In this document: piece after piece, positions 1,446 through 55,543 of the stretch | Position numbering within the stretch: the first letter of the stretch is position 1 | Layout: the number at the start of each line of letters is the position of its first letter | Origin: Candidatus Paraprochloron terpiosi LD05 | GTDB lineage: Bacteria; Cyanobacteriota; Cyanobacteriia; Cyanobacteriales; Prochloraceae | Reading direction: 5' to 3' | NCBI GenBank assembly: GCA_018141785.1 | Contig: CP073341.1 | Span: 3,129,422 to 3,193,421 of the forward strand | Length of the DNA stretch: 64,000 nucleotides | Notes under the pieces: model-generated | Databases searched by the model: none | The model's input: the letters and a program-made list of their open reading frames with translations, nothing else | What the model was told of the DNA's origin: nothing | Position numbers and translations under genes: made by a program

Positions 1446-3461
1446 CTAGCGCCAACCTTTCCAATCTTCGTTAAAAATAGAAGTACCAGGAAAAGCAGTA
1501 GGATTGCGACTTTTATCTATTTGCCGTCGCAGTAGTTGTAATTGGCGGTTTTTGGGGGAGACATCTTCTACTAATTGATAAGGGAAGATACCTTTTTCTA
1601 ATGCAAAAACAGCAGTCATTCCTGCTGCTACACCAGAAGACCATTCAAAAGAATGGACTCGATAAGCAGCGGCGGCAATATGACTGGTGGCAATACTTTT
1701 ACCCGCTACTAACATATTATCGATTTTCTGGGGAATTAATGCTCTGAGGGGGATCTGAAAGGGATAAGCTTGTCCTGCACCCCTGCGCTCTCCTTCTCTT
1801 TCCGTGTTTCTGGGAGTTTCGGGGGGACTCTGGTTCATACAAGGATGAAAATCGATGGCATAGTGACCAATACCCACACTATCAGGATAAATTCTGGAGC
1901 GTGCGCGCCTTTTTACTGCTTCTAATGGAATATCTCCTAACATTACATCAATTGCATCGTTCCCTGCTAACTCTATCCACAAATCCCGATAGGTGGAGGG
2001 GGACAAAGTATTGCTATAGTATTCATCCCGATAGTTTTGGCGGGAAATATCCAGTTCGGTAATGGTAAAACCTTCTGGATAACTGGAGGAAGGTCTGCCA
2101 ATAATGCGCCTTCCTTCTCGAATATAAGGGTATTTGGATAAGCCATGGACTGTCCCCATAGGAGAAGATAAGCCTGAGAGAAAGCGGTAATTGGGGTGGG
2201 GCTGTTTCACTCCCTCTCCTAAGCGGGAGTCGGTTGTTCCGGCGACGAGCCAATAAAAGAATCCCAGGGCATTTTCTTCTCCCCGTCTCAAGGTTTCAGT
2301 ACGTAAGCCCCCTAACCAGCCTCCGGGGGCTAATTGACCGCTAGTTTCTAGTTGTTCTTTCGTATAGACGAGATTATCCTGGGCTGTTCCGGGACGGTAA
2401 TCATTACCCCAAGTCCAGTTTTGCATGGAGATGTCCCCTGAGGTGGGAACTGTAAAACTAATACCACCAAATTTATCCTTGACTCCTGTTTTGGGACTCC
2501 AAATGCGACGATAAGTGAAGACGAGGTCGAAACTGGCTAATCTTTTCAATTCGTAACTATAATAGGGGGCATAATTGGGATAAAAGTCCGGCATTTGGTG
2601 GGTTTGGGGGGTTTTAGTCGCCTCCATAGCAAAGGTATAGGTAAAACCTTGGGTACAATAAGGATCACCTGTTTCGCTGGAGGAGGAGGGTTCCACAGGG
2701 GAACGGGGATCAACTCCCAAGCGGTAGGGAACGTCAGCGAGAGCAATTATTTCTCCTGTTTCTGTAGCATCGATGATATACTTTGGTGTAAAGCTGATGA
2801 TGGTTTTCTCGAATTCTGTTGAATCTTCATAGCGATACCAATCTTCTATATGTTGGGAGAGGGTTTGGGTTTGCTTCCCATCTTTTGGTTGGTGTTCAAT
2901 GGCGATCGCAGTGGTAATTTGTTTACCAGTAGAGTCGGTTTCCAATTCTTTGATAACGGTGTTGGGATACCATTTGAGGGTACCTTTACCCTGTTTTGCA
3001 GCCGTCAACAACTGCTGGAATAATATTTGGTGGGCGTCTCGGGGGAGAAAACAGGATACACTCACCCAACAATCCCCAGGATTGAGTTTACCGTAGTATT
3101 TGGCAATGCGATCCCGCAGTTCCAAATATCCTCGGGGATAGAAGAGCCGTTCCCGCTGGGTAGGTCGTTCGTCTAGGGCTGAGGTTCCTTGGGAGGATAT
3201 TTGTCCTCCTACCCAGTCGGTGATTTCCGTCATACAGACGGTTTTGCCTGCTAGTAAGGCTTCATAGGCAGAAGCGGAGCCGGCTAGTCCCCCTCCTACT
3301 ACGAGGATATCACAAGTTTCGGTTTTGTCTGGGGTTCTGGGAGGTGCTGCTAGGGTAGGAGGAGATAAAGTTTGGCAGAAGACGAGACTAAGGGGTAGGG
3401 AAAGGAAAGAAAAGAGGGAGCGGTTAGTTACGTTTTTTAATGGAAATGGCCAATATTTCAT
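1446..3461 (-). CDS. Secreted or periplasmic FAD-dependent oxidoreductase
   Basis: A hydrophobic N-terminal signal-like stretch is followed by DILVVGGGLAGSASAYEALLAGKTVCMTE (GxGxxG dinucleotide-binding motif). Uninterrupted 671-aa ORF. Confidence 0.7.
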   Translation of the reverse strand: MKYWPFPLKNVTNRSLFSFLSLPLSLVFCQTLSPPTLAAPPRTPDKTETCDILVVGGGLAGSASAYEALLAGKTVCMTEITDWVGGQISSQGTSALDERPTQRERLFYPRGYLELRDRIAKYYGKLNPGDCWVSVSCFLPRDAHQILFQQLLTAAKQGKGTLKWYPNTVIKELETDSTGKQITTAIAIEHQPKDGKQTQTLSQHIEDWYRYEDSTEFEKTIISFTPKYIIDATETGEIIALADVPYRLGVDPRSPVEPSSSSETGDPYCTQGFTYTFAMEATKTPQTHQMPDFYPNYAPYYSYELKRLASFDLVFTYRRIWSPKTGVKDKFGGISFTVPTSGDISMQNWTWGNDYRPGTAQDNLVYTKEQLETSGQLAPGGWLGGLRTETLRRGEENALGFFYWLVAGTTDSRLGEGVKQPHPNYRFLSGLSSPMGTVHGLSKYPYIREGRRIIGRPSSSYPEGFTITELDISRQNYRDEYYSNTLSPSTYRDLWIELAGNDAIDVMLGDIPLEAVKRRARSRIYPDSVGIGHYAIDFHPCMNQSPPETPRNTEREGERRGAGQAYPFQIPLRALIPQKIDNMLVAGKSIATSHIAAAAYRVHSFEWSSGVAAGMTAVFALEKGIFPYQLVEDVSPKNRQLQLLRRQIDKSRNPTAFPGTSIFNEDWKGWR

Positions 3462-3696
3462 CTAGGAACCTCTAAAACAATGGAAACTGGGTAATTTATC
3501 TTCTGAGTGTAAATTATATATAATTTTAGCTACATATTTGTGGATCCTGTGGGAGAGAAGAGCAATTGATGGTAAACTGGGAACCGGACAAGGGATTAAT
3601 CAATGGTCTCATAAAAATCGAAAATGCTTACTCGTTGCGGTCATCGAAGGTGAGAGGCACAATTTTAGCAAAATTAGAGTGAATTACGCACTTTAA

Positions 3697-4023
3697 TTTA
3701 AGGATTTTTATGTAGATCTAGGTGCCAGTAACCTGCTGGCAGCAGAAAAAGAAGCCCGTAAGATTGCAGTGGAAATTAAAAGTTTTACAGGTCGTTCAGA
3801 TATTAATGATTTAGAAAAAGCATTGGGACAATATATATTGTATCATGATATTTTGACAGAAGTAGAGCCATCACGGGAGCTATTTTTAGCTGTTCCTAAT
3901 ACTGTAGCTGAGGATTTATTTGAAGAACCGGTGGGTAAGCTACTGCTTAAAAAACGTCGGTTAAAGCTTATTTCTTTCGCTCCACAACAGGAGGTAATTA
4001 AGCAATGGATCTTGCCAAATTAG
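3697..4023 (+). pseudogene. xisH: xisH-like remnant, N-terminal third missing
   Basis: The frame from 3697 (FKDFYVDLGASNLLAAEKEARKIAVEIKSFTGRS...) parallels the middle and C-terminus of the xisH-like ORF at 47170 (FFIDLGAERIIAAQKDGKKIAVEIKSFLGRS...). There is an in-frame TAA at 3694..3696 and no recognisable N-terminus upstream. Confidence 0.6.
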
Positions 4024-4406
4024 AATGGTATCGTGAAGTAATTGAATCTGTATTGAATGAATATGCAGCATTACCCTACTCCTATGCTAAAATTGAGGCA
4101 GAGGTTGTCTTCGATCGCCTGCGCGATCGCTATTTGTGGATGGATGTAGGTTGGGATGGCGATCTGGGGGTGGGGCACCTTAGTGCCCCACCCGCCAGAT
4201 CTGTTACCACAGATCGCCGTATACATGGCTGTTTAGTCCATATTGACATCATTGACGGTCAAATTTGGATCCAACGGGATGGCACAGAGGATGGTATTGC
4301 AGCGGACCTGGAGCGAGCTGGTATTCCTAAAGAGCATATTGTCTTGGGGTTTCGGTTGCCAGAAATCCGACACTATAGTGGTTATGGGGTCCCTTATAGC
4401 AGTTGA
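4005..4406 (+). CDS. xisI: XisI family protein with a 17-codon in-frame insertion
   Basis: HIDIIDGQIWIQRDGTEDGIAADLERAGIPKEHIVLGF parallels the second xisI-like ORF (HIDIKDGKIWIQRDGTEIGVANELLKMGVPKQDIVLGF). It overlaps the xisH remnant by 19 nt. Confidence 0.8.
   Translation: MDLAKLEWYREVIESVLNEYAALPYSYAKIEAEVVFDRLRDRYLWMDVGWDGDLGVGHLSAPPARSVTTDRRIHGCLVHIDIIDGQIWIQRDGTEDGIAADLERAGIPKEHIVLGFRLPEIRHYSGYGVPYSS
4161..4211. repeat. 51-nt palindromic mini-insertion inside xisI, at a HIP1 site
   Basis: Perfect 11-bp stem GGGTGGGGCAC / GTGCCCCACCC (4168..4178 and 4183..4193) with loop CTTA. An outer imperfect arm is GATCTGG / CCAGATC. GATC flanks both ends within what would otherwise read GGCGATCGCC. 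Confidence 0.7.
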
Positions 4407-4603
4407 CATTTGATAATCGCCAGCTTCTTCATGCCCATTGTTATCACGAGATAGTTGGGGTTTAATGAAGGGAAACTATCACGTCCGGTAAGATAGCCAG
4501 GTGGAGGGGGCGATCTCTTCACCTAGGTTCATTAGGCAATACAAACTAACCCCAAGCACCCAAACCTTTTCAGATTAGCAGATTAAACTCAAGCAACCTG
4601 ATC

Positions 4604-5332
4604 TTAGTCTACATTGGCATCCTTTATTGAGGGATTACTTACCGCTTTAATAAATGCCTCACCAACGATAGTCAGCTTCCAGTAACTTGCTGGCTTTTTC
4701 TCACGTTCACCTGATCTGTTCTCAGTTTCAACCATTGGACGCTCAATAAGTCCTAGGTTAGATAGATGCACATTGGTAAAGTCTGTAGGTTCTTCGATAA
4801 TATCTTTAAATTTAATTTCAAATCCAAATACCTTAAAACTTAAAGTCACCTTTTTAGGAGGATCAGATCGTTGTGCTAAGTCGATAAGTCGATATGCATC
4901 TGTAGAACTTAGTCTGGATAAAATATGAATAAACTCTGGATGAATAGAGCTATCCGCTAATTCGTTAGCAAGTAAGTTACTCCAAAGCTCTTGTAATGTT
5001 TCATCAGTTTCAGTAGACGAAGATTCAATGACTTTGAGCATTATAGATGCCCTTGGCATTCTAGTTGAGTCATATCTACTGTTTGAGGCTTTTTCGGCAG
5101 CACTTTTTAGTATTTGAGCAGCAAGCCATTTTTCGGCATCAACGAATCTGTCAAACTTGGCATTAATAAGCCTACCAATACCACCTGTAGTAGATGTTAT
5201 TGGTGCTAGTAATTCTTTGAAAGTGTAGCAGACAGTATTAACAATTTGATTCCATGAATCATCGGGAATAGCTTCCGCAAGTTTTCCAACACCCGCTAGA
5301 TCAAGACTACGATCTTCAGTCATATATAGCAA
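4604..5332 (-). CDS. Abi-alpha / DUF4393-like protein (tentative)
   Basis: The central segment ETLQELWSNLLANELADSSIHPEFIHILSRLSSTDAYRLIDLA resembles the conserved core I recall for DUF4393/Abi-alpha proteins. This assignment is from memory only. Confidence 0.45.
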   Translation of the reverse strand: MLYMTEDRSLDLAGVGKLAEAIPDDSWNQIVNTVCYTFKELLAPITSTTGGIGRLINAKFDRFVDAEKWLAAQILKSAAEKASNSRYDSTRMPRASIMLKVIESSSTETDETLQELWSNLLANELADSSIHPEFIHILSRLSSTDAYRLIDLAQRSDPPKKVTLSFKVFGFEIKFKDIIEEPTDFTNVHLSNLGLIERPMVETENRSGEREKKPASYWKLTIVGEAFIKAVSNPSIKDANVD

Positions 5333-5509
5333 TCCTAAATTAGTTGTAAATTTTCTCTTGTTGTCTTGGGAGTGCCAGCCTCCTTACAAGCTAAGGATTT
5401 AACTGGAAGCATTGAGAATTTTCCAGGTCGCTGAAGTCAATTATCTGACGGTAAGAAGCACCCCGGAACTGCACAAAGGTTTCTGGGTCGTAGGCGACCA
5501 CATTTATAG

Positions 5510-5556
5510 TATAGCGTGCTGCGCTTTGCGCAGATCCGCGCTAGCGCGGGTCGCCC
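5510..5556. repeat. GC-rich double-hairpin repeat, copy 1
   Basis: TATAGCGTGCTGCGCTTTGCGCAGATCCGCGCTAGCGCGGGTCGCCC. It matches 15030..15076 except that the first hairpin loop is TTT here and AAA there. Confidence 0.8.
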
Positions 5557-5688
5557 CCAAAGGTAACTTGGAGGGTCAGCTGGTCAAGCACCGGGTGAGG
5601 AAAGGTAGCTTGATGGACTTTCCGAGTGTCAACTCCCAAACTGGCACCTCTTCTATTATAATTACCATGTTAGCATATTATAATAATC

Positions 5689-5886
5689 ATGACCACTCAT
5701 TTCATTACCGCTGAAATCGACCTACAAGCAACTCCAGCTCAATTGCACCGGGAAATAGAAGCCGAATTAACTAAACGAGGAGAACCTCTGCGCTGGGCAA
5801 TTACTAGTATAGACAAGGATAAACAAAAAGCCCATGTGGAGGCGATCGTTACTCAACAGTTACCAAGTACCATGACAGTCCAATGA
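5689..5886 (+). CDS. Small hypothetical protein (65 aa)
   Basis: ATG-initiated ORF in an otherwise non-coding gap, with no overlapping longer ORF. No domain recognised. Confidence 0.35.
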   Translation: MTTHFITAEIDLQATPAQLHREIEAELTKRGEPLRWAITSIDKDKQKAHVEAIVTQQLPSTMTVQ

Positions 5887-6079
5887 GTTAAAATTAAAGA
5901 AAAAATTAATTAGTGAGAGAGGGAAGTGAGTTTTCTGAATTTAGAACATTATTGCTTCCCACTCCCAATGGGTTGACAAAAATTGGTGACAATTTATCAA
6001 AAACAAGCTTGAAAACAATTGTTATCTAAAGTTATTGTATATTGCCGCTGTTTTGAGAAAAAGTAGTCAAGATAAATTC

Positions 6080-6403
6080 ATGCCAAGTACTGCCCTCCCT
6101 ACTCGTTCTGCTTTAATTATTACTGGGTTTCACGCTCTCTCGGCTCCCCGGCGATTGCGGGTACTGGAATTACTCCAGGAACGGGAACTCTGTGTCTGTG
6201 ATTTGTGCGCTGCTCTGAATATTTCTCAGTCGAAACTATCCTTTCACCTCAAAACCCTGAAAGAAGCTGCTTTAGTTAATCCTCGTCAAGAAGGGCGTTG
6301 GGTTTACTATAGTCTTAATGTACCTCAATTTGCTGTCTTGGAGGAGTATCTTGCAGCTTATAGTAAGGCGATGGCCTTACCTGCTCGTCTCTGCCAAGAC
6401 TAA
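6080..6403 (+). CDS. ArsR/SmtB family metal-responsive transcriptional regulator
   Basis: ELCVCDLCAALNISQSKLSFHLKTLKEAALVNPRQEGRWVYYSLN is a winged HTH with the CVC metal-site motif. The first in-frame ATG is at 6080; the track start at 6035 is TTG. Confidence 0.8.
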   Translation: MPSTALPTRSALIITGFHALSAPRRLRVLELLQERELCVCDLCAALNISQSKLSFHLKTLKEAALVNPRQEGRWVYYSLNVPQFAVLEEYLAAYSKAMALPARLCQD

Positions 6404-6457
6404 GAGGGAATCGAGTTTATTGTACATACGGTCAACTTTTAGTCTATATACCTTTCT

Positions 6458-7102
6458 ATGATAATTGGAACACGAGAACCAAAAGCGGAGTTACAGTTCG
6501 GGGAGCAACGGGTGGTGCTGAGGGGTATCTCCTGGAAAGCCTACCTACAAATTTTCGATGCACTCCCACAATCCCGTGGTTCTCGTCTCACTTACGATGA
6601 TGGAATATTAGAAATTACTGTGCCTTTAGAAGATCATGAGTTTTTCTGTCGTTTAATTGAACGTTTTATTTTCACTTTAGTTGAACTTATGGGAATGAGG
6701 CTAAAAACCATGGGTTCAACAACCATGAACTATCCTCAGCTCAAGAAAAGCGCAGAACCTGATAACGCTTATTATATCCAAAATCAACCCCTAGTGAAAG
6801 GTCGGAATGTGGATTTTAGCCAAGATCCGCCTCCTGATTTGGTGGTTGAGGTGGACATTACCCATACTGATATTGCCAAAAACGAGTTTTACGCCAGCCT
6901 GGGAGTACCAGAGTTTTGGCGGTTTGATGGCAAGGTATGGCGGATTTACCAACTTGAAGACGGGGTTTATAGGTCAGTTGAGGTGAGCAATACATTTTCC
7001 CAAGTGCCCAAAGAGCTGCTGTATAGGTTTCTGGAGCAAGCAAAAGAGGATGAAATTGCTGCGGTGCAGTCATTACGGGCTTGGTGGATAGAGCAACAAT
7101 GA
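6458..7102 (+). CDS. Uma2 family (DUF820) endonuclease-like protein
   Basis: Contains PDLVVEVDITHTDIAKNEFYASLGVPEFWRFD, the Uma2 core motif. Confidence 0.85.
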   Translation: MIIGTREPKAELQFGEQRVVLRGISWKAYLQIFDALPQSRGSRLTYDDGILEITVPLEDHEFFCRLIERFIFTLVELMGMRLKTMGSTTMNYPQLKKSAEPDNAYYIQNQPLVKGRNVDFSQDPPPDLVVEVDITHTDIAKNEFYASLGVPEFWRFDGKVWRIYQLEDGVYRSVEVSNTFSQVPKELLYRFLEQAKEDEIAAVQSLRAWWIEQQ

Positions 7103-7139
7103 ACAATTTGGCGCCGTAAAGATAAGCTATAATGAGGAT

Positions 7140-7966
7140 GTGCGGCTCGAAAGTCGCAGTAGTTAGTGGGTGAAAGCCCCATGGGGAGTGTCTTCCCCGG
7201 TTCCAGCCCGAAGGAGCTTTGGCAGTAATGCCGGAGTTTCACAGCTAGAGGGTTAAATGGCCAAGCTACTATCAGTCCGATGGTGGTAGCGGCCTAGGGA
7301 AAGTCTGATATGGTGAGCATAAAGCGAAGCTTGCAGCCTCGTTACGTAGGAAGAGTGAAAGCGGTACTGTTACACTCTAACCAAAACGGTATGCGGCATA
7401 TGTGAAAGATGGAATGTCATCGTCATCGCGTAGACACCACGCCGCCGGGGTATGGAGCAGCCCGCCGTCAGACGTATCTAACTACTGTGGAACGAGTAAA
7501 CCTCCACTGGGTCTGAGAAATCAGTAGGATAGCTGTAAAGCGAACCAATTCCCAGGGGAGACAGGACTCTCCTAAGAAGCGAACGCTGCTAGGACGAAAG
7601 TTCAGGGGAATCAATAACCCGGCAGATAGGCAAATGTCTACCCCCGCCATCCGCGATGCCGGGGGGAGCTGACGTAGGAGAGGGTGAAACGTAACGGTAA
7701 AATCCCTTACCACTTGCGATTTTGCCTGTCCATTAGCTGGAACTTGAAACTCAAAGCTCCTCAGAAGTTAGAGGCGTCGGGCAAACGTCAATGGCGAGGA
7801 GATTGGAATTTAAGGACTCAAAGCCCAATCTGAATGAGACCTGAAAGCCGATACAAGTAATGAGGAGTAAACGCGCCAGCGAGTAGGATGATACACCAGG
7901 AGCCGGGTGCTTGGAAACCTGCACGCCCGGTACTGCGAGGGGGAAAACCTGTAAGGGTCTACCTAT
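7140..7966 (+). mobile_element. ORF-less group II intron-like element (3' boundary approximate)
   Basis: Begins GTGCGGCTCG, identical to the first 10 nt of the ORF-containing intron at 63582. Contains GGTGAAAGCC-type D1-like motifs. A domain-V-like hairpin GAGCCGGGTGCTTGGAAACCTGCACGCCCGGTAC lies at 7900..7933, about 33 nt before the proposed end. The track shows no + strand ORF between 7103 and 7887. Confidence 0.55.
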
Positions 7967-7977
7967 CTCGACATTAT

Positions 7978-8271
7978 ATGAACAAGTCTGAAGAATGGGA
8001 ATTAAAACTGCACCCTCGTCAATCAGAAACAATATCTTTAGAGATCCCCAAAGATACCAGAGAATCTCTGAAAAAAGTAGCTAATAGTCGCGATATGTCT
8101 TTTAAAGCATTACTCAAATTTTATCTTGGTCAAGGTTGGCGACAATACTTAGCTCAATTATTTTACCATCGGGTTAGGTTAGCAACTGAAAAAGTTCTAG
8201 CTAACCCGATCCAGTCAGAAGAAGAAATATCTAACATTATGACAGAAATATGCTCAGAAATAAATTTTTAG
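7978..8271 (+). CDS. Small hypothetical protein, possibly RHH/antitoxin-like
   Basis: The ATG at 7978 lies just after the intron-like element; the track start at 7888 falls inside domain V and is unlikely. ISLEIPKDTRESLKKVANSRDMSFKALLKFYLGQG resembles CopG/BrnA-type antitoxin cores, but weakly. Confidence 0.4.
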   Translation: MNKSEEWELKLHPRQSETISLEIPKDTRESLKKVANSRDMSFKALLKFYLGQGWRQYLAQLFYHRVRLATEKVLANPIQSEEEISNIMTEICSEINF

Positions 8272-8362
8272 CCGTAGGGTGCGTCTTGGCGCGATACATC
8301 TTCGGACAATCCGCTAATTGTACAATTCATGATAGTTAGCTATATCAATTTTATAAATTCGT

Positions 8363-9118
8363 TTACTTTTGGCCACTCACAATTTTTTCTGGGCTCAACA
8401 ACTCCCATAAGTGGGTGATTACCATATCCGGTTGAATCCCTTGAACTCTTTCTTCGGTCTCCCTCTTTTTCAGGGAACGCTGATCCCCTGCAAACAAAGC
8501 AGTTTTAAACCCCAATTGTTGCGCTGGATAAATGTCATTGAGCATGTCGTTGCCTACATATAAAGTCTGACTCGGTTCTATCCCCATCTTCTGCAATTGG
8601 GCCTTTAACAACTCATACAGCCCCACCCCTGGCTTCGCCATTCTTTCTCGGTAGGAATACACACACAAGTTGGAGTGAAAGGGGGGCAAAGGATCGCAAT
8701 CTGAAAAAGGTTCACCTTGCAAAGAGTCTTCTAAGTCACTGTTTACAACATTGCTTAAACCACTGTTTAAAAAGAAGCGTAACAACATAGGGGTGAAAAA
8801 CTGAGCCACCCCTCTTTCTTTAATCTCTGTTAAGACTCGTTTCATCTCTGGCATGGGAAAGGTTGGGTTGTTTCTAAATTCAAAAGCCATGCTCAAAGTC
8901 CGAAAGGCGATCTCTCCCATATCCTTTGGAACATAAACCCCTGCAGTTTCTGATCTCCTAGGCAATTTCTGATTGCTCCGCAACCGCCAAAGGCGTCCCA
9001 CCTCTTTCCAAACTTCCTCGATCAACACCTCTGGAAATGGGTTTCCGGCTTCTTTAGCCTCTGCGTGATGGCGAGCAATGGTTTCTTGATACAGTTGAAT
9101 GGCTTCTTTTCCAACCAC
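8363..9118 (-). CDS. HAD-superfamily hydrolase, C-terminal ~250 aa; gene appears frameshifted
   Basis: TLYVGNDMLNDIYPAQQLGFKTALFAGD is the distal HAD motif. HAD motif I (IVFDVYGTL, 9228..9254) lies upstream in a different frame. Confidence 0.6.
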   Translation of the reverse strand: MVGKEAIQLYQETIARHHAEAKEAGNPFPEVLIEEVWKEVGRLWRLRSNQKLPRRSETAGVYVPKDMGEIAFRTLSMAFEFRNNPTFPMPEMKRVLTEIKERGVAQFFTPMLLRFFLNSGLSNVVNSDLEDSLQGEPFSDCDPLPPFHSNLCVYSYRERMAKPGVGLYELLKAQLQKMGIEPSQTLYVGNDMLNDIYPAQQLGFKTALFAGDQRSLKKRETEERVQGIQPDMVITHLWELLSPEKIVSGQK

Positions 9119-9319
9119 CTTATCCGTACAAGGAAATTCCCAGATAGAGCAATACCTCTTTCAGTGCTTCAGCAGCATACTGAGGGAGGTGATTTGTATT
9201 GCCAATACCCCCGGAATCTAATACCAATAAGGTTCCATATACATCAAAGACAATGCTACGAATGCCATTTAGTTCATCAGGACTTAAACGGCAAAGAGAG
9301 GGTTCTCCTGTGAGTTCAG

Positions 9320-19169: not shown

Positions 19170-19961
19170 ATGCTCATGGGATTACAGTGGATTTGGCGTC
19201 AGCAGCAGAGGAAAGTATCCCCTTGGTTGGCAGCAATATTAATCTTTTGTCTGACATGGCTGAGTTTGTCCGCGCCAGTGGCTGCAAATGATAAGCTGGT
19301 AACGAGACAATTAGAAGCGGAGGTCCTGGAAATTATCCGCAGCCATCCAGAAGCGATCTGGAACTCTTTACAGACATACCTAGCCCAAGAAAAGCAGCAG
19401 AAGCAACAAGCCCAGCAAGCAATCTTGCAGCAGTTGAAGACACTTCCTGCAAAAGTTATTGGCTCCTCTCCTACTGCGGGATCGCCGCAACAAAAAATTG
19501 TTTTGCTAGAGTTCTCCGACTTTCAATGTCCTTATTGCGGCTTGGCTCAGGATACAGTGAAGGAGTTTATGACTGAACACGAGGATGAAGTTACCTTGGT
19601 TTACAAGCATTATCCCCTCTCTTCTATCCATCCTCAAGCCATGGCGGCAGCTACAGCAGCTATTGCAGCTCATCGCCAGGGGAAGTTTTGGCAGTACCAC
19701 GATGCTCTCTTTGAGCAACAAGATAGGTTAGGGGAGGAATTTTATCAAGCTATTGCTAGAGACCTGAATTTGGATCTAGAACAATTTAACCGCGATCGCC
19801 AAAGCGATGCAGCACTGTTTGCTATTGAGCAGGACATTCAGCTCGCTCAGACTCTCGGGATTCAGGGTACTCCTTTCTTCATCATGAATGAGGAGACATT
19901 TTCTGGCGCTATTCCTCTCTCCCAAATAGAGGAGATATTCCAACGACAAAAATCTCGTTAA
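19170..19961 (+). CDS. DsbA-like thiol:disulfide oxidoreductase (thioredoxin domain)
   Basis: N-terminal membrane anchor/signal and CPYC active site (FSDFQCPYCGLAQ). Confidence 0.8.
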   Translation: MLMGLQWIWRQQQRKVSPWLAAILIFCLTWLSLSAPVAANDKLVTRQLEAEVLEIIRSHPEAIWNSLQTYLAQEKQQKQQAQQAILQQLKTLPAKVIGSSPTAGSPQQKIVLLEFSDFQCPYCGLAQDTVKEFMTEHEDEVTLVYKHYPLSSIHPQAMAAATAAIAAHRQGKFWQYHDALFEQQDRLGEEFYQAIARDLNLDLEQFNRDRQSDAALFAIEQDIQLAQTLGIQGTPFFIMNEETFSGAIPLSQIEEIFQRQKSR

Positions 19962-25294: not shown

Positions 25295-26035
25295 ATGATA
25301 TTAACTGACAAGTTTGTTTATATACATATACCTAAGACTGGAGGAACTTTTGTAACTTCAATACTCAACCAACTTCATTGTCAAAGAGAAGAAGGAACTA
25401 AACTCAGCCGTTTGCTGGCCAGAATATCTGGCTACTGTCGAGGTTATATTGATACCAATAGAAAAGGCACCAAACACGGAACTTGCAGTCAAATTCCATG
25501 GGCTTTCAGAAGTAAGCCCATTGTGTCTAATACCAGAAACCCTTACGATTCATATGTATCAGCCTATGAGTTTGGGATGTGGATCAAAAGATATTGTAAT
25601 CCCAACAGAGATTATTCTTTTTTAGAGTTTGTCAAGCTCCGCAATGGATTAGGAGAAGATTCAGGGATGCACTTTGATGATAAATCTTTAGGTTTCCTTA
25701 GCAAAAGATTTATCAAGTTTTTTTTCAAACAGCCAGATAATCAGCTATCTAGAATAGATGATAGCTATCTGAAAAATAAAACCTACCAAGAAGAGATGTT
25801 TCCGGTCCATTTTTTCAGGAAAGAAAATTTGAATCAGGATCTCTACGAGTATTTACTGAGTGTAAGATATTCAGCCAAGCAAATTGAGTTTATTCTTAAT
25901 GAGCCGAAGATAGTACCGCTTGGAAACATAAGAGGAGAAGACAAAAAATGGTCAAATTACTATACCCCAGAATTGAAAAAATGGGTGAGAATGAAAGAAA
26001 GGTTGTTGTTTGCAATTAATTTTTCCCGAATATGA
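25295..26035 (+). CDS. Sulfotransferase family protein (HxPKTGGT type)
   Basis: N-terminal YIHIPKTGGTF motif, typical of the sulfotransferase-2-like family. Confidence 0.55.
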   Translation: MILTDKFVYIHIPKTGGTFVTSILNQLHCQREEGTKLSRLLARISGYCRGYIDTNRKGTKHGTCSQIPWAFRSKPIVSNTRNPYDSYVSAYEFGMWIKRYCNPNRDYSFLEFVKLRNGLGEDSGMHFDDKSLGFLSKRFIKFFFKQPDNQLSRIDDSYLKNKTYQEEMFPVHFFRKENLNQDLYEYLLSVRYSAKQIEFILNEPKIVPLGNIRGEDKKWSNYYTPELKKWVRMKERLLFAINFSRI

Positions 26036-26381: not shown

Positions 26382-27293
26382 ATGTATTTATTGAACCGTA
26401 AATTTCATATAATCAAACTAGTTGGTGATATCTTAAGTCCCTTAGTAATTGCAAAACAATCACCTATTTATATCGTTGGTATGCCTAGATCAGGAACTAC
26501 CTGGATTACTTCCATTTTAAGTACATCTCCTGGAATTAAATGCTTATTTGAACCGTTTAATGTCAAATTTAGTCCCGAAGCCAAACCTTATATAAAAAAA
26601 TATTTCCGCGAAGAGCACCATGAAGAATTGGCCCTCTATTTTAGGAATATCTTGAGGTTTAATCATAAAGAGTGTAGATTAGGATATCTGGGGCGTATCT
26701 ATAAAAAATTGCCCTGGTGGCCCGGTCGAATCATGATTAAGGATGTACACACAACCATGGCTTTAGATTGGATTGCGCAGCAGATTAATCCTATCATAGT
26801 CATTATCATGCGCCATCCCTGTGCAGTCGCCCTAAGTTGGTTTCGTCTTTCTTCGAGGGTACCAGACTTAGAACCAAACTTAGATAAGTTCCTCCAGCAA
26901 CCCAAGCTGATGGCTGATTATTTAGCCCCTTTTGAATCAGTGATGAGAAATGCTAGGAGTTTCTGGCAAAAGACAGGTGCTCTATGGGGTGCATCTTATT
27001 ATGTCATGCTTGAGCAACAAAAACAACATCCAGACTGGATTGTAATCCAACACGAGACTTTGTGTCAAGATCCACGGCAGCAATATCGCGAATTATTTGA
27101 CAAATTAAATCTTCATTGGACACCAACAACTGACTATCTGCTCAATCTATCAACTAACAACAATAGTGATGATCCTTGGCTCCCGGTAAGAATATCTTCC
27201 CGAGAGCATAATAAGTGGCAAAAAGAACTGGAGCGATCGCAAATCAATCAGGTTAAGGAATTTGTCCAACCCTTTGGCATTCCATATTTTTAG
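26382..27293 (+). CDS. Sulfotransferase (PAPS-dependent, P-loop type)
   Basis: The 5'-PSB-like motif IVGMPRSGTTW lies near the N-terminus. Confidence 0.7.
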   Translation: MYLLNRKFHIIKLVGDILSPLVIAKQSPIYIVGMPRSGTTWITSILSTSPGIKCLFEPFNVKFSPEAKPYIKKYFREEHHEELALYFRNILRFNHKECRLGYLGRIYKKLPWWPGRIMIKDVHTTMALDWIAQQINPIIVIIMRHPCAVALSWFRLSSRVPDLEPNLDKFLQQPKLMADYLAPFESVMRNARSFWQKTGALWGASYYVMLEQQKQHPDWIVIQHETLCQDPRQQYRELFDKLNLHWTPTTDYLLNLSTNNNSDDPWLPVRISSREHNKWQKELERSQINQVKEFVQPFGIPYF

Positions 27294-30440: not shown

Positions 30441-30510
30441 CCCCTCTCTGCGTCTCTGCGCCTCTGCGTGAAACTTCCTCGCGCAAAGACGCAAAGGCGC
30501 AAAGGAGGGG
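30441..30510. repeat. Octamer-repeat element (CTCTGCGN x3, GTGAAAC, then CGCAAAGN x3)
   Basis: Sequence is CCCCTCTCTGCGTCTCTGCGCCTCTGCGTGAAACTTCCTCGCGCAAAGACGCAAAGGCGCAAAGGAGGGG. Related copies lie at 36437-36465, 39335-39369, 39901-39929, 51337-51367, 53178-53208, 55415-55445, 59807-59836 and 63601-63680. Confidence 0.8.
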
Positions 30511-39301: not shown

Positions 39302-39370
39302 TGGTCAAGTATAGCTTGTACTCTCTTCAAAATACCCCCTCTCTGCGACTCTGTGCCTCTGCGTGAAACT

Positions 39371-43526: not shown

Positions 43527-43566
43527 AAAATCCATATTCAGCGGTTAAAAAAAGGTGTGCCATGCC

Positions 43567-47111: not shown

Positions 47112-47133
47112 GTAGGGGTGGGCATTGCCCACC
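47112..47133. repeat. GTAGGG(G)TGGGCATTGCCCACC palindromic repeat
   Basis: Same family as 51582..51600, 53259..53279 and 58345..58365 (core GTGGGCA-A-TGCCCAC). Half copies lie at 11411, 42088 and 43555. Confidence 0.8.
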
Positions 47134-49752: not shown

Positions 49753-50565
49753 ATGATTTTAGCCATATCCAAACTCCCCATTATTTACCCAGAAACCGAC
49801 GGGAAACCCATGTCTGAAAGCGACTTTACTCGCGATTACCTGTTATATGGGGTGAATGTGTTGCAGTATTACTTTCGCCATCAGGAAAACGTCTATGTAT
49901 CCGGTAATTTGTTTATCTATTACAAAAAAGGTGTTTCCGACGCCGTAGTTTCCCCTGATGTGTTTGTTATCAAAGGAATCAGCAACAAGAAACGCCGCGT
50001 TTATAAAGTTTGGGAAGAAGACAACAAAGCTCCCAACTGGGTTTTAGAAGTGACATCTAGTAGTACCCGCAATGCTGATAATCTAGAAAAACCGCAAAAA
50101 TACGCTGACATGGGAGTAGCAGAGTATTTTCAATATGATCCCACAGGAGAATATTTGCAACCTTGTCAACTGCAAGGCTTTCGTTTAGTAAATGGAAGGT
50201 ACCAATTAATAATACCAGAGTTTGGACAAGAGGGAATGCTGTCAATACCCTCGGAAGTTTTAGGGCTACAGTTACACCTTATTTCAGGGGAATTGCGGTT
50301 CTATGATCCACTGACAGAGAAATTTTTGCCCTCATACTCCCAAACACGAAGGCTCCTTACACAAGCTCAACAGCAGCTTATACAAGCCGAACAGCAGCGG
50401 GATGCGGAGGCTCAAGCCCGCACACAAGCCGAACAGCAGCTTGCACAAACCCAACAGCGACTTAATAATGCAGTTTCTCAATTACTGACAACAGGAATGA
50501 CTGTGGAGCAGGTTGCCCAAATTTTAGGTTTATCTATTGATGAGGTGCGTTCTCGCTCTATCTAG
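49753..50565 (+). CDS. Uma2 family endonuclease-like protein with Q-rich coiled-coil insert and C-terminal HTH-like tail
   Basis: PNWVLEVTSSSTRNADNLEKPQKYADMGVAEYFQYD core, a QAQQQLIQAEQQRDAEAQARTQAEQQLAQTQQR segment, and the tail GMTVEQVAQILGLSIDEVRS. Confidence 0.85.
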   Translation: MILAISKLPIIYPETDGKPMSESDFTRDYLLYGVNVLQYYFRHQENVYVSGNLFIYYKKGVSDAVVSPDVFVIKGISNKKRRVYKVWEEDNKAPNWVLEVTSSSTRNADNLEKPQKYADMGVAEYFQYDPTGEYLQPCQLQGFRLVNGRYQLIIPEFGQEGMLSIPSEVLGLQLHLISGELRFYDPLTEKFLPSYSQTRRLLTQAQQQLIQAEQQRDAEAQARTQAEQQLAQTQQRLNNAVSQLLTTGMTVEQVAQILGLSIDEVRSRSI

Positions 50566-50599: not shown

Positions 50600-51325
50600 A
50601 TGACTTTACCTATATCCAAACCCCATATCATTTACCTGGAAACCGACGGTGGACCCATGTCTGAAAGCGACTTTACTCGCGATTACCTGTTATATGGGGT
50701 GAATGTGTTGCAGTATTACTTTCGCCATCAGGAAAACGTCTATGTATCGGGTCATCTGTTTATCTATTACGAAAAAGGTGTTCCCGACGCTGTAGTTTCC
50801 CCTGATGTGTTTGTGATTAAAGGAGTCAGCAATAAGAAACGCCGCATTTATAAAGTCTGGGAAGAAGACAACAAAGTTCCCAACTGGGTTTTAGAAGTGA
50901 CGTCTGCTAGTACCCGCTATACTGACAGCGAAAGCAAACCACAAAAATACGCTGACATGGGGGTAGCAGAGTATTTTCAATATGATCCCACAGGAGATTA
51001 CTTGCAACCTCAACAACTGCAAGGCTTTCGTTTAGTAAATGGAAAATACGAACCTATAGTACCAGAGTTTGGACAAGAGGGGGTGCTGTCAATACCCTCA
51101 GAAGTTTTAGGGCTACAGTTACACCTTATTTCAGGCTCACTGCGGTTCTATGATCCAGTGACCAAGAAACTTTTGCCCTCATACTCCCAAACACGAAGGG
51201 AGGCAGAACTTGCCCAGCAGGGGCTTAATAATGCAGTTTCTCAATTACTGACAACAGGAATGTCTGTGGAACAAGTTGCCCAAATTTTAGGTTTATCCAT
51301 TGATGAGGTGCGTTCTCGCTCTTAG
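50600..51325 (+). CDS. Uma2 family endonuclease-like protein (tandem paralogue, lacks most of the Q-rich insert)
   Basis: Highly similar to 49753..50565 along its whole length, except for the shorter segment REAELAQQG. Confidence 0.85.
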   Translation: MTLPISKPHIIYLETDGGPMSESDFTRDYLLYGVNVLQYYFRHQENVYVSGHLFIYYEKGVPDAVVSPDVFVIKGVSNKKRRIYKVWEEDNKVPNWVLEVTSASTRYTDSESKPQKYADMGVAEYFQYDPTGDYLQPQQLQGFRLVNGKYEPIVPEFGQEGVLSIPSEVLGLQLHLISGSLRFYDPVTKKLLPSYSQTRREAELAQQGLNNAVSQLLTTGMSVEQVAQILGLSIDEVRSRS

Positions 51326-51433
51326 CCGGAAGGTATCACGCAGAGTCGCAGAGACGCAGAGGAGGGAGATATACCGTAACGATGCAATATATGTATTTTA
51401 TTGATGAAAAAAAAGAATGAATAGGCAATAAAT

Positions 51434-51627: not shown

Positions 51628-53175
51628 ATGCTAGGAGAAATGTGGTCATTTCGGGGTAGATACAAAATCCTCCATCTCACTTGGTTTGCATTCTTTCTCT
51701 CTTTTGTAGTTTGGTTTAACTTTGCCCCGTTTTCCACTGCCGTGAGAGAGACTTTTAATCTAGAATTGGGTCAGGTGAGAACCATCGCCATTTGTAACGT
51801 GGCTTTGACAGTACCGGCGAGGGTAATTATCGGCATGCTCTTGGACAAATATGGTCCCAGAATTACCTATTCTATCTTGTTAATATACGCGGCTATTCCC
51901 TGCGTAACTTTTGGTTTGGCCCAGAACTTCAGCCAGTTGGTAATTAGTCGTTTGGCACTGAGTATCGTCGGTGCAGGTTTTGTCGTTGGTATCCGTATGA
52001 CAGCGGAGTGGTTTCCCCCCAAGGAAATTGGTTTAGCGGAAGGAATTTACGGGGGCTGGGGCAATTTTGGTTCCGCAGCAGCAGCTTTTACCCTCCCCAC
52101 TATCGCCGGTTGGTTAGCTTTTGGCGGTTCTGGTCTCAACTGGCGGATAGCAATTATAGGGACTGGTATCATTAGTGCTATCTACGGTGTGGTCTACTTC
52201 TTGAACGTCCGAGATACTCCTCCCGGGAAAGTTTATCAGCGACCCCCTAGTACGAGAGGAATAGAGGTGACTACCAAGAAAGACTTCTGGTTCCTAATGC
52301 TGATGAATGTTCCTCTCTCGGGGATTCTCATGGTGCTATCTTGGCGTTTAAAGAAGGTGGGTTTCTTCAATGAAGGTGCATTTACGATAGCTATCCTTGC
52401 CCTACTGGGTTTGTATCTGTTCCAAGCTTACAATTGCTGGACAGTGAATAAAGACTTGCTCAGTGGAAAGAAGAAATATGCTCCTGAAGACCGCTATAAT
52501 TTCTCCCAAGTTGCCATTCTCGAATTGACTTATATTGTCAACTTCGGTTCCGAGCTAGCGGTGGTTTCTATGCTGCCAGCGTTCTTCGAGGGTACTTTTG
52601 ACCTGAGCAAACAAGCAGCAGGGGCGATCGCTGCCAGCTATGCCTTCATGAACTTAATGTCTCGTCCTGGTGGAGGACTGCTGTCAGATAAACTGGGTAG
52701 CCGTAAGATGACCATGGGAGTCTTAACAGCAGGTTTAGGTATAGGTTATATGTTAATGGGTACTATCAGTGGCGGTTGGTGGCTACCTGGTGCTATCTTA
52801 CTAACCATGGCTTGTTCCTTCTTTGTACAAGCAGCAGAAGGTTCTACCTTTGCTATCGTTCCCCTGGTGAAACGGCGCATTACGGGACAGGTAGCTGGAA
52901 ATGTGGGGGCCTATGGCAATGTGGGTGCTGTTGCTTATCTCACTATCTTCAGTCTCTTACCTGAATGGGTTAGTAGTGGTAAGTTTGCAGGGTTCTCTGA
53001 AACAGAAAAAGCTGCTGTCATTGCACAATCTAATACTGCTTTCTTCCAGGTAATGGGAGTAGCAGCCCTCATAGTGGCCTTTTTGTGTTTCTTCATTCTC
53101 AAAGAACCCAAAGGTTCCTTTTCTGAACACCATGAAGGGGAGGTGGAAAAGGAATTGGTTACTTCTAGTAGGTAG
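51628..53175 (+). CDS. nrtP: MFS nitrate/nitrite permease (NNP family)
   Basis: 515 aa with about 12 TM segments and the two NNP signature-like motifs GGWGNFGSAAA and GAYGNVGAV. It lies between nirA and narB. Confidence 0.85.
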   Translation: MLGEMWSFRGRYKILHLTWFAFFLSFVVWFNFAPFSTAVRETFNLELGQVRTIAICNVALTVPARVIIGMLLDKYGPRITYSILLIYAAIPCVTFGLAQNFSQLVISRLALSIVGAGFVVGIRMTAEWFPPKEIGLAEGIYGGWGNFGSAAAAFTLPTIAGWLAFGGSGLNWRIAIIGTGIISAIYGVVYFLNVRDTPPGKVYQRPPSTRGIEVTTKKDFWFLMLMNVPLSGILMVLSWRLKKVGFFNEGAFTIAILALLGLYLFQAYNCWTVNKDLLSGKKKYAPEDRYNFSQVAILELTYIVNFGSELAVVSMLPAFFEGTFDLSKQAAGAIAASYAFMNLMSRPGGGLLSDKLGSRKMTMGVLTAGLGIGYMLMGTISGGWWLPGAILLTMACSFFVQAAEGSTFAIVPLVKRRITGQVAGNVGAYGNVGAVAYLTIFSLLPEWVSSGKFAGFSETEKAAVIAQSNTAFFQVMGVAALIVAFLCFFILKEPKGSFSEHHEGEVEKELVTSSR

Positions 53176-53177
53176 AA

Positions 53178-53208
53178 TTTCACGCAGAGGCGCGGAGGCG
53201 CAGAGAGG
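53178..53208. repeat. Octamer-repeat element, left inverted copy flanking the ATPase/nuclease cassette
   Basis: TTTCACGCAGAGGCGCGGAGGCGCAGAGAGG is 29/31 identical to the reverse complement of 55415..55445. Confidence 0.85.
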
Positions 53209-53258
53209 TGGGAAGAGATTTTTCGACGCCCACCGACAGCCGTTCGAGATTTAACCTT

Positions 53259-53279
53259 GGTGGGCAATGCCCACCCTAC
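53259..53279. repeat. GGTGGGCAATGCCCACCCTAC palindromic repeat
   Basis: Full copy. It supplies the stop codon (TAG, 53278..53276) of the 184-aa ORF. Confidence 0.8.
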
Positions 53280-53830
53280 CCAACTAAACCTTTAAAGTTG
53301 AGATATTTCGGAGAGCTGATTTTTAGCATTCGCTCTGGGCTATCATGAATACCCTTTTTTGGCTTAGTTATGGTAGGCTTTTTATTAATCCGAATATTTT
53401 TAATACTAACAAACCGATACTTATATCCCTCAAGAAAATCTTTTTTATCCCAAAACACCCGACCAATTTCTCGACAATAGGCAACGAAACACTGGGAACC
53501 TTGAAGTTGTTGCTTTATTTCTTTCGTTCCTCCTCCCTTACCTGCTTTCATCTCAATACAGACAATAAATTTCTCTTGTTCAGTATTAGCAATAATAACA
53601 AAATCTGCCCGTTTACACTCACCCCGTGAATTAGCAAATACTGTCTTAGGTGAGGGAAAGTCATCTGTCTTTATAACAATTACATCATCATCCTTAGGCA
53701 TTTTATGAATTGTGACGGAATAGTCACCAGGAGGAGGTTCTTTCAATATCACTTTGTCACCGTAGGGAGGTTTCAATGAAACAGTAATAGATTTTTTGAA
53801 CAGCTCTTTGAGGATGGCAATATCAGACAT
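53276..53830 (-). CDS. Small PD-(D/E)xK nuclease-like protein (184 aa from the ATG at 53830)
   Basis: ECKRADFVIIANTEQEKFIVCIEMKAGKGG gives a D-x17-E-x-K pattern within alternating beta-like hydrophobic runs. The ATG overlaps the ATPase stop (TAATG). The track start at 53845 is TTG. Confidence 0.5.
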   Translation of the reverse strand: MSDIAILKELFKKSITVSLKPPYGDKVILKEPPPGDYSVTIHKMPKDDDVIVIKTDDFPSPKTVFANSRGECKRADFVIIANTEQEKFIVCIEMKAGKGGGTKEIKQQLQGSQCFVAYCREIGRVFWDKKDFLEGYKYRFVSIKNIRINKKPTITKPKKGIHDSPERMLKISSPKYLNFKGLVG

Positions 53831-55218
53831 TACTCGTCTTCCCAAACGATTTTTTCTTGAATTCGATTCATGGTGTCAATAGTGATATCAAAACTGGGGG
53901 CGTCAATCCCAAATTCTGAATCTATATTTGCGGCGACAAGAGTATTACATTGGGTTTTCCTGCTATTGCCATCCATTTTTATAGATGCTTTTTGAGCAAT
54001 ATAAACTTTAATTTGCTCAGATTTTATTAATTCTTCTGACTGATAACCTTCTTCCTCTGCGATTCTTTTTAGATAGGGTTTATCATGATTGAGCATAATT
54101 AACGTGTTCAATTCTTTGATGATATAATCACTGTGGGTAGTAATGAACACCTTGATACCAAGATTAACCAATTGAGCAAAAAGTCGTGCAACCCGACGCT
54201 GGTTCTCAGGATGCAGGTTAAGTTCCGGTTCATCTACAATCAACAAATCACCTAACTGAGCTTCATGTTTCAGATAAAATCCAATATCTAACAAAGAGCG
54301 TACTGCACTGGAACTTTCATCCATAGAAAGTTTTGTTCGTTTTCCTTTTTTGGGTACATAATAGAGGGCGTCATCTTTCGTGACGGTGTATTCACCGCCA
54401 ATTAAATCGGCAAAATTGGCTAAGATATGGGGATAATGTTCAGCAATGAAGCTGCGCTGTTTAGAAATTGTTTCTAGGTTGCGGGTAAACTCTACATTCT
54501 TCTCTACGGGTAGGGCATAGTTTTGATAGTTTTTGAAGAGTAGTGTCCTTGGATCCAGATCCGTCTGGCTAATTTCCTCTAGCAGGCGGTTTCGCGCAAA
54601 GTTTAATTCTTTTCGGAATATAGCCGCACCTGTTCGTTCAGCACTGGCAATGAAAGGATTAGGGAAAAGTGATGTTAAAATAATTCTCTGAAGGTAATAT
54701 GCTATGACATCTTTGATTATAGAAGGCGGAATTTTTACCTTTTCTGTCTCCCCAAGCAAGGTAATGACAAGCTCAGTACTATCTTCACTTTTAGAGATAA
54801 AGAACTGCTCTTCTCCACTTGCCGTACTTATTTTTTGCTCAAATTTTGGGTTCAAGGAAATATCTTGAGTATTGATAGTCACCTCAAATACTGTTTCCTT
54901 AAATCTCTCTGGCGGAGCTGCAAAAATTTTGGGTAATTGCTGAGAATAAGCTTTACAAGCTTGAGTTAAAACTTGCTCTGCTTGTTCAACATATGTGTTT
55001 AAATCTAGAGTAACGACACCTTCAGAAAGGAGTTGTTCAATTTTATCATCGCCAATTTTAAACGGTAGCTTTTGTTCCCGCCACAGATACAAAAAACCAC
55101 ATAAAGCATAGGTGGCATAGGTTTTACCCGTGTTATTTACTCCACAAATAATTGTTAGTTCCCCTAAGGTAAATTCAGCTTGCCTTAAAATTCCAAGATT
55201 CTTGAGTTTAATGTCCAT
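53830..55218 (-). CDS. ABC/SMC-type (AAA_15/AAA_21-like) ATPase, soluble
   Basis: Walker A ICGVNNTGKTYA at the N-terminus. About 300 aa later come the signature-like DESSSAVRSL, Walker B LLIVDEPELNLHPENQ and H-loop FITTHSDY. No TM segments. Confidence 0.75.
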   Translation of the reverse strand: MDIKLKNLGILRQAEFTLGELTIICGVNNTGKTYATYALCGFLYLWREQKLPFKIGDDKIEQLLSEGVVTLDLNTYVEQAEQVLTQACKAYSQQLPKIFAAPPERFKETVFEVTINTQDISLNPKFEQKISTASGEEQFFISKSEDSTELVITLLGETEKVKIPPSIIKDVIAYYLQRIILTSLFPNPFIASAERTGAAIFRKELNFARNRLLEEISQTDLDPRTLLFKNYQNYALPVEKNVEFTRNLETISKQRSFIAEHYPHILANFADLIGGEYTVTKDDALYYVPKKGKRTKLSMDESSSAVRSLLDIGFYLKHEAQLGDLLIVDEPELNLHPENQRRVARLFAQLVNLGIKVFITTHSDYIIKELNTLIMLNHDKPYLKRIAEEEGYQSEELIKSEQIKVYIAQKASIKMDGNSRKTQCNTLVAANIDSEFGIDAPSFDITIDTMNRIQEKIVWEDE

Positions 55219-55414
55219 GATTGTTTCCTCCCTCTTCTCTCGGATCCTCCATTTTACACCTCACTAATCTTTCACAATCAGCTCTAGTTCCTTTCCCGTA
55301 TTTGGATTGCGCAAAATCACCTGAGTATAACCCCGCCGTGCTTGTTCTTGAAGTCCTTTCTCAATAGCAAGGGCAATTCTAAGCGCCCAAACGGGGGTGG
55401 AAAATCTCTCCCCT

Positions 55415-55445
55415 CCTCTCTGCGACTCTGCGCCTCTGCGTGAAA
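55415..55445. repeat. Octamer-repeat element, right inverted copy flanking the cassette
   Basis: CCTCTCTGCGACTCTGCGCCTCTGCGTGAAA. Confidence 0.85.
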
Positions 55446-55501: not shown

Positions 55502-55543
55502 GTATTCAAATATACAGGAAAAGAAGTCAAAAATAAATAATCT
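55502..55543 (+). promoter_or_regulatory. NtcA-type activated promoter candidate for narB
   Basis: GTATTCAAATATAC (GTA-N8-TAC) at 55502..55515. After a 22-nt gap comes TAATCT (TAN3T) at 55538..55543, 34 nt before the narB ATG. Confidence 0.55.

Follow-up and report, generated by a model that had tools for sequence, protein, structure and literature searches.

A predicted ATPase–nuclease defence pair of candidate family PDC-M47 in the nitrate-assimilation cluster of Candidatus Paraprochloron terpiosi LD05

PD-T4-4 was experimentally selected as an Escherichia coli defence system and comes from an element resembling an integrative and conjugative element (Vassallo et al. 2022), while WonAB of Vibrio cholerae WASA-1 combines an OLD-type ATP-binding cassette (ABC) ATPase with a nuclease of PD-(D/E)xK-variant type (Adams et al. 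2025); both protect against phage. WonAB has been linked to PD-T4-4 and to an 'OLD-ABC ATPase + novel REase' (restriction endonuclease) operon, present in 0.96% of bacterial genomes (Adams et al. 2025). PDC-M47 is one of 145 'phage defence candidates' put forward by 'guilt-by-embedding', that is, on the basis of genes located inside BREX, DISARM and type I restriction-modification (RM) systems, and appears in the supplement of that work as cassette CAS_00156 (Payne et al. 2024). Here we analyse a stretch of 64,000 nucleotides, hereafter the window, from Candidatus Paraprochloron terpiosi LD05 (NCBI GenBank assembly GCA_018141785.1, contig CP073341.1, positions 3,129,422 to 3,193,421 of the forward strand), in which two adjacent genes, referred to as A and B, lie antisense between the nitrate-assimilation genes nrtP and narB. 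Judged from sequence, the pair is probably (probability of about 0.8) an intact two-gene anti-phage module belonging to PDC-M47, a candidate family of the PADLOC database that is sister to the validated PD-T4-4.

Placement of the pair among described systems

Both proteins match PADLOC profiles over their full length: residues 1–461 of A align with positions 1–460 of the 461 in PDC-M47A (E 9.6e-227), and residues 1–183 of B with positions 1–183 of the 186 in PDC-M47B (E 1.9e-79), so that the top model for each is PDC-M47 and not PD-T4-4. As in the family, A is followed by B, adjacent and co-directional, and a pair on a plasmid of Annamia dubia, whose A protein is 62.5% identical, falls in the same PADLOC class. 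The locus differs from those through which the candidate was first recognised in being a solo locus inside a nitrate-assimilation cluster rather than a passenger of BREX, DISARM or type I RM. An initial annotation, made from the sequence alone, had recognised a defence-type ATPase and nuclease and had left the pair unclassified, with no named family in which to place it. The first of these statements is supported by the PADLOC defence models and by the OLD/PtuA-like fold of A, whereas the second is refuted because the pair matches an already named system, the very ground on which the annotation had proposed to abandon it. The pair is already catalogued, and is an ordinary additional member of PDC-M47 and not a new kind of system.

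The nearest validated relative is PD-T4-4 (RCO57999.1 and RCO57988.1), with which the pair shares an ATPase homologous over its full length (PADLOC PD-T4-4_A, E 3.5e-155 for PDLC04033, full length, and 2.8e-73 for PDLC04032), a two-gene operon running from A to B, a small partner whose core reads D...(D/E)xK...Q, and presence on mobile elements, PD-T4-4-type pairs occurring on Col plasmids of 4–5 kb and, flanked by the CI repressor and the integrase, in a P2-like Vibrio phage. The two differ in that A is 25–30% identical to the E. coli and Vibrio phage examples and B is distantly related. The catalytic motifs of B line up with those of the partners of PD-T4-4-type ATPases in hhalign comparisons (E 7e-4 and 2.5e-3), KRADFVII corresponding to KSCDLVIV and SRCDFVVI, and IEMK to LDLK and GDLK, and with QQL aligned as well.

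WonAB (AWB73975.1 and AWB73976.1; the Anaerovibrio reference pair is SHI83489.1 and SHI83462.1) resembles the pair in architecture, coupling an OLD-like ABC ATPase that is extended at its C terminus with a small nuclease of PD-(D/E)xK-variant type, such as B is predicted to be, and differs in the smaller size of WonB (16.1 kDa) and in the positions of the ATPase residues, which are K34, E300 and H333 in WonA compared with K32, E330 and H362 in A. The 'OLD-ABC ATPase + novel REase' operons come from the ABC ATPase survey that stands as reference 33 in the 2025 WonAB report by Adams and colleagues, reportedly that of Krishnan and colleagues from 2020. The Septu and retron PtuAB systems share with the pair the logic of a sensor ATPase coupled to a nuclease effector, and the ABC fold of A is nearest to PtuA and to the OLD-family effector of retron Eco8; however, their partner PtuB is an HNH protein, and A matches the PtuA model merely at E 1e-11. 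The same logic is common to OLD, Gabija and PARIS, where the nuclease is of TOPRIM (or DUF4435) type. With Pfam and PADLOC, no HNH or PtuB match was obtained for B and no TOPRIM or DUF4435 match for A or B, in agreement with the initial view that the effector belongs to neither the HNH nor the TOPRIM class. Overall, the PADLOC matches of PtuA, GajA, Old and AriA to A are 130–200 orders of magnitude weaker than that of PDC-M47A.

The two proteins and a possible mechanism

When metagenome contigs were scanned, the B profile found 80 loci. Wherever there was room for it, that is, at least 1400 bp upstream of B, a full-length A ended at the start of B (59 of 59 loci), and in a further 18 of 18 loci with partial upstream room the corresponding portion of A was present. 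At the window locus the stop codon of A and the start codon of B share one base in the sequence TAATG, and 59 of 77 homolog loci have TAATG or TGATG at this point. Taken together, these data support A and B as an obligate, translationally coupled pair in the order A then B. The coupling had been proposed beforehand from the overlap and is upheld here, as are the position of the pair on the strand opposite to the flanking nitrate genes and the occurrence of the two genes together elsewhere. An alternative open reading frame (ORF) for B would begin at an upstream TTG and encode 189 amino acids, but the ATG start giving 184 amino acids is favoured because homologs begin with MSDI.

Protein A carries a Walker A motif GVNNTGKT at residue 26, a signature DESSSAVRSL at residue 300 (span 300–309), a Walker B/D-loop segment LLIVDEPELNLHPENQ at residue 325 and an H-loop ITTHSDY at residue 359, with K32 (Walker A), D329/E330 (Walker B) and H362 (H-loop) as key residues. 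All of these ABC motifs are kept in 57 homologs (57–71% identity) and in a second alignment. The segment SAERTG at residue 192 is conserved too and contains R195, which may occupy the Q-loop position by analogy with R182 of WonA. A beta-rich extension makes up the C terminus, from about residue 400 to residue 462. Pfam matches are to AAA_15 (1e-22) and AAA_21 (2.8e-15). In the AlphaFold2 (AF2) model (predicted local distance difference test score, pLDDT, 76.5; lower confidence at residues 208–252 and 278–301), the best solved folds found by Foldseek are the OLD-family effector of retron Eco8 and PtuA from Septu and from retrons Ec78, Ec83 and Eco7, at E 1e-10 to 1e-8, followed by Rad50; no member of the PD-T4-4, WonAB or PDC-M47 group is among the solved-structure matches. 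The family of A comprises more than 4,700 homolog clusters, labelled merely 'AAA family ATPase'. These results support A as an ABC ATPase of the defence type, similar to OLD and PtuA, rather than a subunit of a transporter. The initial reading of split ABC motifs of AAA_15/AAA_21 type with no permease partner thus stands, given the Pfam matches, the conserved motifs, and neighbours that are nrtP, of the major facilitator superfamily (MFS), and narB.

The core motif of B is D76-x16-E93-x-K95, so that the nuclease signature first noted in it is conserved, with a spacing of x16 instead of the x17 originally counted. Across 39 sequences there is no variation at E71, C72, R74, E93, K95 or Q108, while D76 is present in at least 90%. 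In the AF2 model (pLDDT 86.9), D76 immediately precedes a strand at 77–82, E93 and K95 stand at the end of a second strand at 87–94, and a long helix follows at 102–126, a modelled order of secondary structure that fits the one expected of a PD-(D/E)xK core. Pfam, NCBIfam and PHROGs hold no family for B. At E <= 1e-3 its family comprises 705 representative clusters (50% identity), nearly all of them 180–200 amino acids in length, and among the matches of B and A that carry organism names the majority are cyanobacteria.

By homology with WonAB and PD-T4-4, we propose a model where A would dimerise around ATP while holding B, probably on the C-terminal extension of A, and where an infection cue would set off an ATP-dependent switch in A that licenses B. 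B would then act as a metal-dependent PD-(D/E)xK nuclease, using D76, E93 and K95 to cleave nucleic acid. Translation-machinery RNA would be a likelier target than DNA, an assignment that we make tentatively and, for RNA, at somewhat less than even odds; the halt of translation that follows would result in abortive infection. The activity of WonAB depends on each of its two genes, on the ATPase motifs and on the lysine of the nuclease (Adams et al. 2025); the system aborts infection through a block of translation without degradation of DNA, and acts once phage DNA replication has begun. Purified EcPD-T4-4, for its part, assembles into higher-order complexes and left all 11 DNA substrates uncut in vitro.

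The locus and its history

The stop codon of nrtP (53173–53175) and the ATG of narB (55577) are separated in the window by 2401 bp, compared with a median of 338 bp in 65 other cyanobacterial species, in 57 of which the gap is at most 700 bp, and A or B was absent from all 80 nrtP–narB loci examined in these species. The features of the interval are collected in Table 1. The closest relatives (L081 to L084, 92–95% DNA identity), on the other hand, keep the cassette beside narB in the same divergent arrangement; collinearity with them stops at about position 53230 of the window, and genes other than nrtP follow B there. It follows that the ancestor of a small clade related to Candidatus Paraprochloron already had the cassette, and that a later rearrangement at a dispersed repeat altered the side facing nrtP. 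The check proposed initially, whether the nrtP–narB interval is empty in related cyanobacteria, thus shows an interval without the pair in the 65 species, and a cassette beside narB in the closest relatives. Overall, the pair is supported as accessory across cyanobacteria, but not as a fresh insertion. Its guanine and cytosine content (36.8–37.7%, compared with a window ORF median of 44.9%) is weak evidence, because a conserved nitrate-reductase-associated gene is equally low.

Table 1. Features of the A/B locus (window coordinates).
Feature	Coordinates	Strand	Basis
Gene A, 462-amino-acid OLD/PtuA-like ABC ATPase (PDC-M47A; PD-T4-4_A homolog)	53830..55218	-	Pfam, PADLOC, motifs, AF2/Foldseek
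Gene B, 184-amino-acid predicted PD-(D/E)xK-type nuclease effector (PDC-M47B)	53276..53830	-	PADLOC, conserved residues, AF2
TAATG junction, stop of A and start of B sharing one base	53828..53832	-	Read from sequence
Remnant of a 70-amino-acid ORF: last 40 codons and stop, no start codon	55264..55386	-	Translation and comparison with L081/L082
Left copy of dispersed octamer-repeat element; flanking context, outside the system	53178..53222	.	
Right inverted copy of the same dispersed octamer-repeat element; flanking context	55401..55445	.	
Palindrome GGTGGGCAATGCCCACC immediately 3' of the B stop codon	53259..53275	.	Dispersed family, 5 sites in window

In other genomes the pair usually stands alone, with housekeeping genes around it, and sometimes adjoins other ABC-ATPase modules. 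In L082 an AAA_15/AAA_21 gene paired with DUF3226 lies near the cassette (11459–13155), and in L166 the region 1996–8686 near the cassette holds AAA_21 with RloB as well as a gene for a 336-amino-acid AAA_15/21 protein; these may represent further defence modules. We considered whether the pair goes with nitrate genes as a general rule and rejected the idea, a NarB-like match being found in 1 of the 80 metagenomic loci and the other contexts being unrelated. One locus (L154) has a NarB-like fragment, and on an unrelated cyanobacterial contig (L170) the pair (8616–10561) lies about 6 kb from nirA-nrtA (16553–19668), probably by coincidence.

Upstream of narB, a candidate promoter of the canonical NtcA type is found at 55502–55543, made up of GTATTCAAATATAC, a spacer of 22 nt and TAATCT. 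Three close relatives have both boxes unchanged, with a spacer that differs in between, and across the window the composite motif shows no enrichment (4 found against 4.2 expected). From this sequence arrangement, narB probably has its own nitrogen-regulated promoter, in an operon now split by the antisense cassette. We also considered that PDC-M47 might be a functionally distinct, cyanobacteria-rich branch with a nuclease that hits translation-machinery RNA, and that its antisense position here may couple defence expression to nitrogen status through convergent transcription of the nitrate operon, a scenario that we regard as quite unlikely.

Counter-evidence, alternative readings and significance

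Several observations weigh against reading the pair as an intact PDC-M47 defence module. PD-T4-4_B matches B at best at E 3.5e-6 and over core residues 68–166 only, a weak link, and WonAB is likened to the pair by architecture and published description, not by sequence alignment. A literature search for PDC-M47 found no paper naming the family, which is without experimental validation. No match at E <= 1e-3 came from Foldseek comparison of the B model with PDB and BFVD, and a B-profile sequence search of solved structures returned chance-level matches. The weak Foldseek matches of B are rich in nuclease domains (BsmI, FokI, BspD6I, BamHI, MunI, PaqCI, Hjc, RecB and DdmD), and in VRR-NUC and PD-(D/E)XK phage proteins. 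The search for a PD-(D/E)xK core suggested by the initial annotation was thus answered in part, by the order of strands and helix and by weak matches that lean towards restriction endonucleases. With no significant fold match, the case for a nuclease fold in B is built from the conserved motif, the order of secondary structure and this weak enrichment. Around the cassette PADLOC found weak PDC-S03 matches to two Uma2 genes and generic reverse transcriptase matches to a group II intron protein, and the window locus is not a defence island. Finally, a promoter and terminator scan of the locus did no better than on shuffled sequence, promoter-like sites being no commoner in the locus (Rfam likewise gave nothing credible there), the region upstream of A is shortened relative to close relatives, and the ratio of nonsynonymous to synonymous substitution rates (dN/dS) within the clade is 0.24–0.34 for A and 0.56–0.66 for B, against 0.11–0.14 for narB.

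The ratio for B, the lack of promoter-like enrichment and the upstream deletion also favour reading the cassette as a relic, silent or in decay, whose ORFs are still intact in a module no longer expressed or selected, as is common in gene-losing symbiont lineages. The deletion removed about 140 bp from the window, including the 5' half of a 70-amino-acid ORF that relatives carry upstream of A, some together with a 95-amino-acid ORF. One close relative is a sponge-symbiont cyanobacterium, and the L081 copy has an in-frame premature stop in A (8610–10001) and a D76N substitution in B (10001–10561; P0002), the sole natural exception at D76, and looks like a naturally inactivated cassette. In the window, however, neither ORF is shortened, all the catalytic motifs are intact, and dN/dS stays below 1, the within-clade values fitting either relaxed or diversifying selection. 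Moreover, loss of the 70-amino-acid ORF need not matter, since it lies outside the conserved unit in other genomes: the protein has no Pfam match and was not found in distant loci carrying the pair. A by-eye impression that it might be a ribbon-helix-helix regulator was dropped, given the absence of a Pfam match and of conservation outside the close clade. We regard a relic as unlikely, and an intact module as the better description of the window copy.

A mainly selfish role, as an addiction or toxin–antitoxin-like stability module rather than in immunity, would account for PD-T4-4-type pairs making up most of the coding capacity of 4–5 kb Col-type plasmids and for the toxicity of overproduced WonB. 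That toxicity requires functional WonA, including its ATPase activity, which speaks against simple sequestration by an antitoxin; PD-T4-4 and WonAB confer protection against phage, and most cyanobacterial copies are chromosomal solo loci. Such a role is thus very unlikely to be the main one.

The flanking repeats raise the further possibility that the cassette is a mobile unit bounded by its own terminal inverted repeats, resembling a miniature inverted-repeat transposable element (MITE) or a composite transposon. The inverted copies that the initial annotation had described as 31 nt long (29 of 31 identical) are real and even longer, the two arms being 45 nt in length and 91% complementary; they bracket exactly the two genes, and the left arm exactly occupies the space between the nrtP stop codon and the synteny breakpoint with the relatives. 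They give no evidence of mobility, however, as the element is dispersed. Its core is GTTTCACGCAGAGGCGCAGAGnCGCAGAGAGG, of tandem GCAGAGnC octamers, and it matches 15 times, where 0.35 would be expected, at about 9 intergenic sites across the window, with five near-full copies (30443–30470, 39338–39365, 51337–51364, 53181–53208 and 55415–55442) and further partial sites. The relatives L081 to L084 have the right arm at the same place without the left one, in four unrelated loci with the pair no inverted repeat of this sort flanks it, and no transposase is found among the ORFs and Pfam matches of the window locus. The inverted repeat was therefore rejected as the cassette's own termini, and a mobile unit of this kind is highly improbable. 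The palindrome next to B is also a dispersed family: the 17-nt sequence recurs at 47117, 51580, 53259 and 58345, with a degenerate copy at 43554, often right after stop codons. At the pair it abuts the stop codon of B (53276–53278), so that B does not end inside it as had been thought. Because both repeats are dispersed intergenic families, the bracket is not specific to the cassette.

A housekeeping DNA-repair pair of the RecF, SbcC or Rad50 kind, or the ATPase of a nitrate-uptake ABC transporter, as might be suggested by weak sequence and fold likeness to UvrA and Rad50 ATPase cores and by the location beside nitrate genes, is effectively refuted by the lack of a permease partner (nrtP being an MFS transporter), by NCBIfam transporter matches (12–27 bits against cut-offs above 130) and UvrA matches far under their cut-offs, by the absence of the pair from the nrtP–narB position in 65 species together with its variable contexts elsewhere, and by best PADLOC matches that are all to defence models.

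Further along the window, a NurA-domain protein (59878–61023, minus strand) is followed by the group II intron reverse transcriptase/maturase (RVT_N, RVT_1 and GIIM; 61144–62922, minus strand). A near-identical 44-nt sequence occurs at 25036 and 26276 on the plus strand, 1240 bp apart, which suggests a local duplication involving the ORFs 25295–26035 and 26382–27293. Between nirA and nrtP stand the tandem Uma2-family paralogs, putative restriction endonucleases at 49753–50565 and 50600–51325 on the plus strand, with weak matches to the PADLOC candidate PDC-S03 (E about 1e-10); the nirA–nrtP gap in other species ranges from 77 bp to 8.3 kb.

The comparison also has calibration value, in that a reading made without database searches recognised a defence-type ATPase–nuclease pair, and profile searches showed that it had been catalogued before. 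Further value lies in PDC-M47 itself, to which we assign the pair, a candidate family that is abundant, especially in cyanobacteria. Because the Uma2 genes occupy one gap of the nirA-nrtP-narB cluster and the A/B cassette the other, both gaps hold accessory insertions, and the locus illustrates clearly how accessory genes have settled between the members of a conserved nitrate-assimilation cluster.

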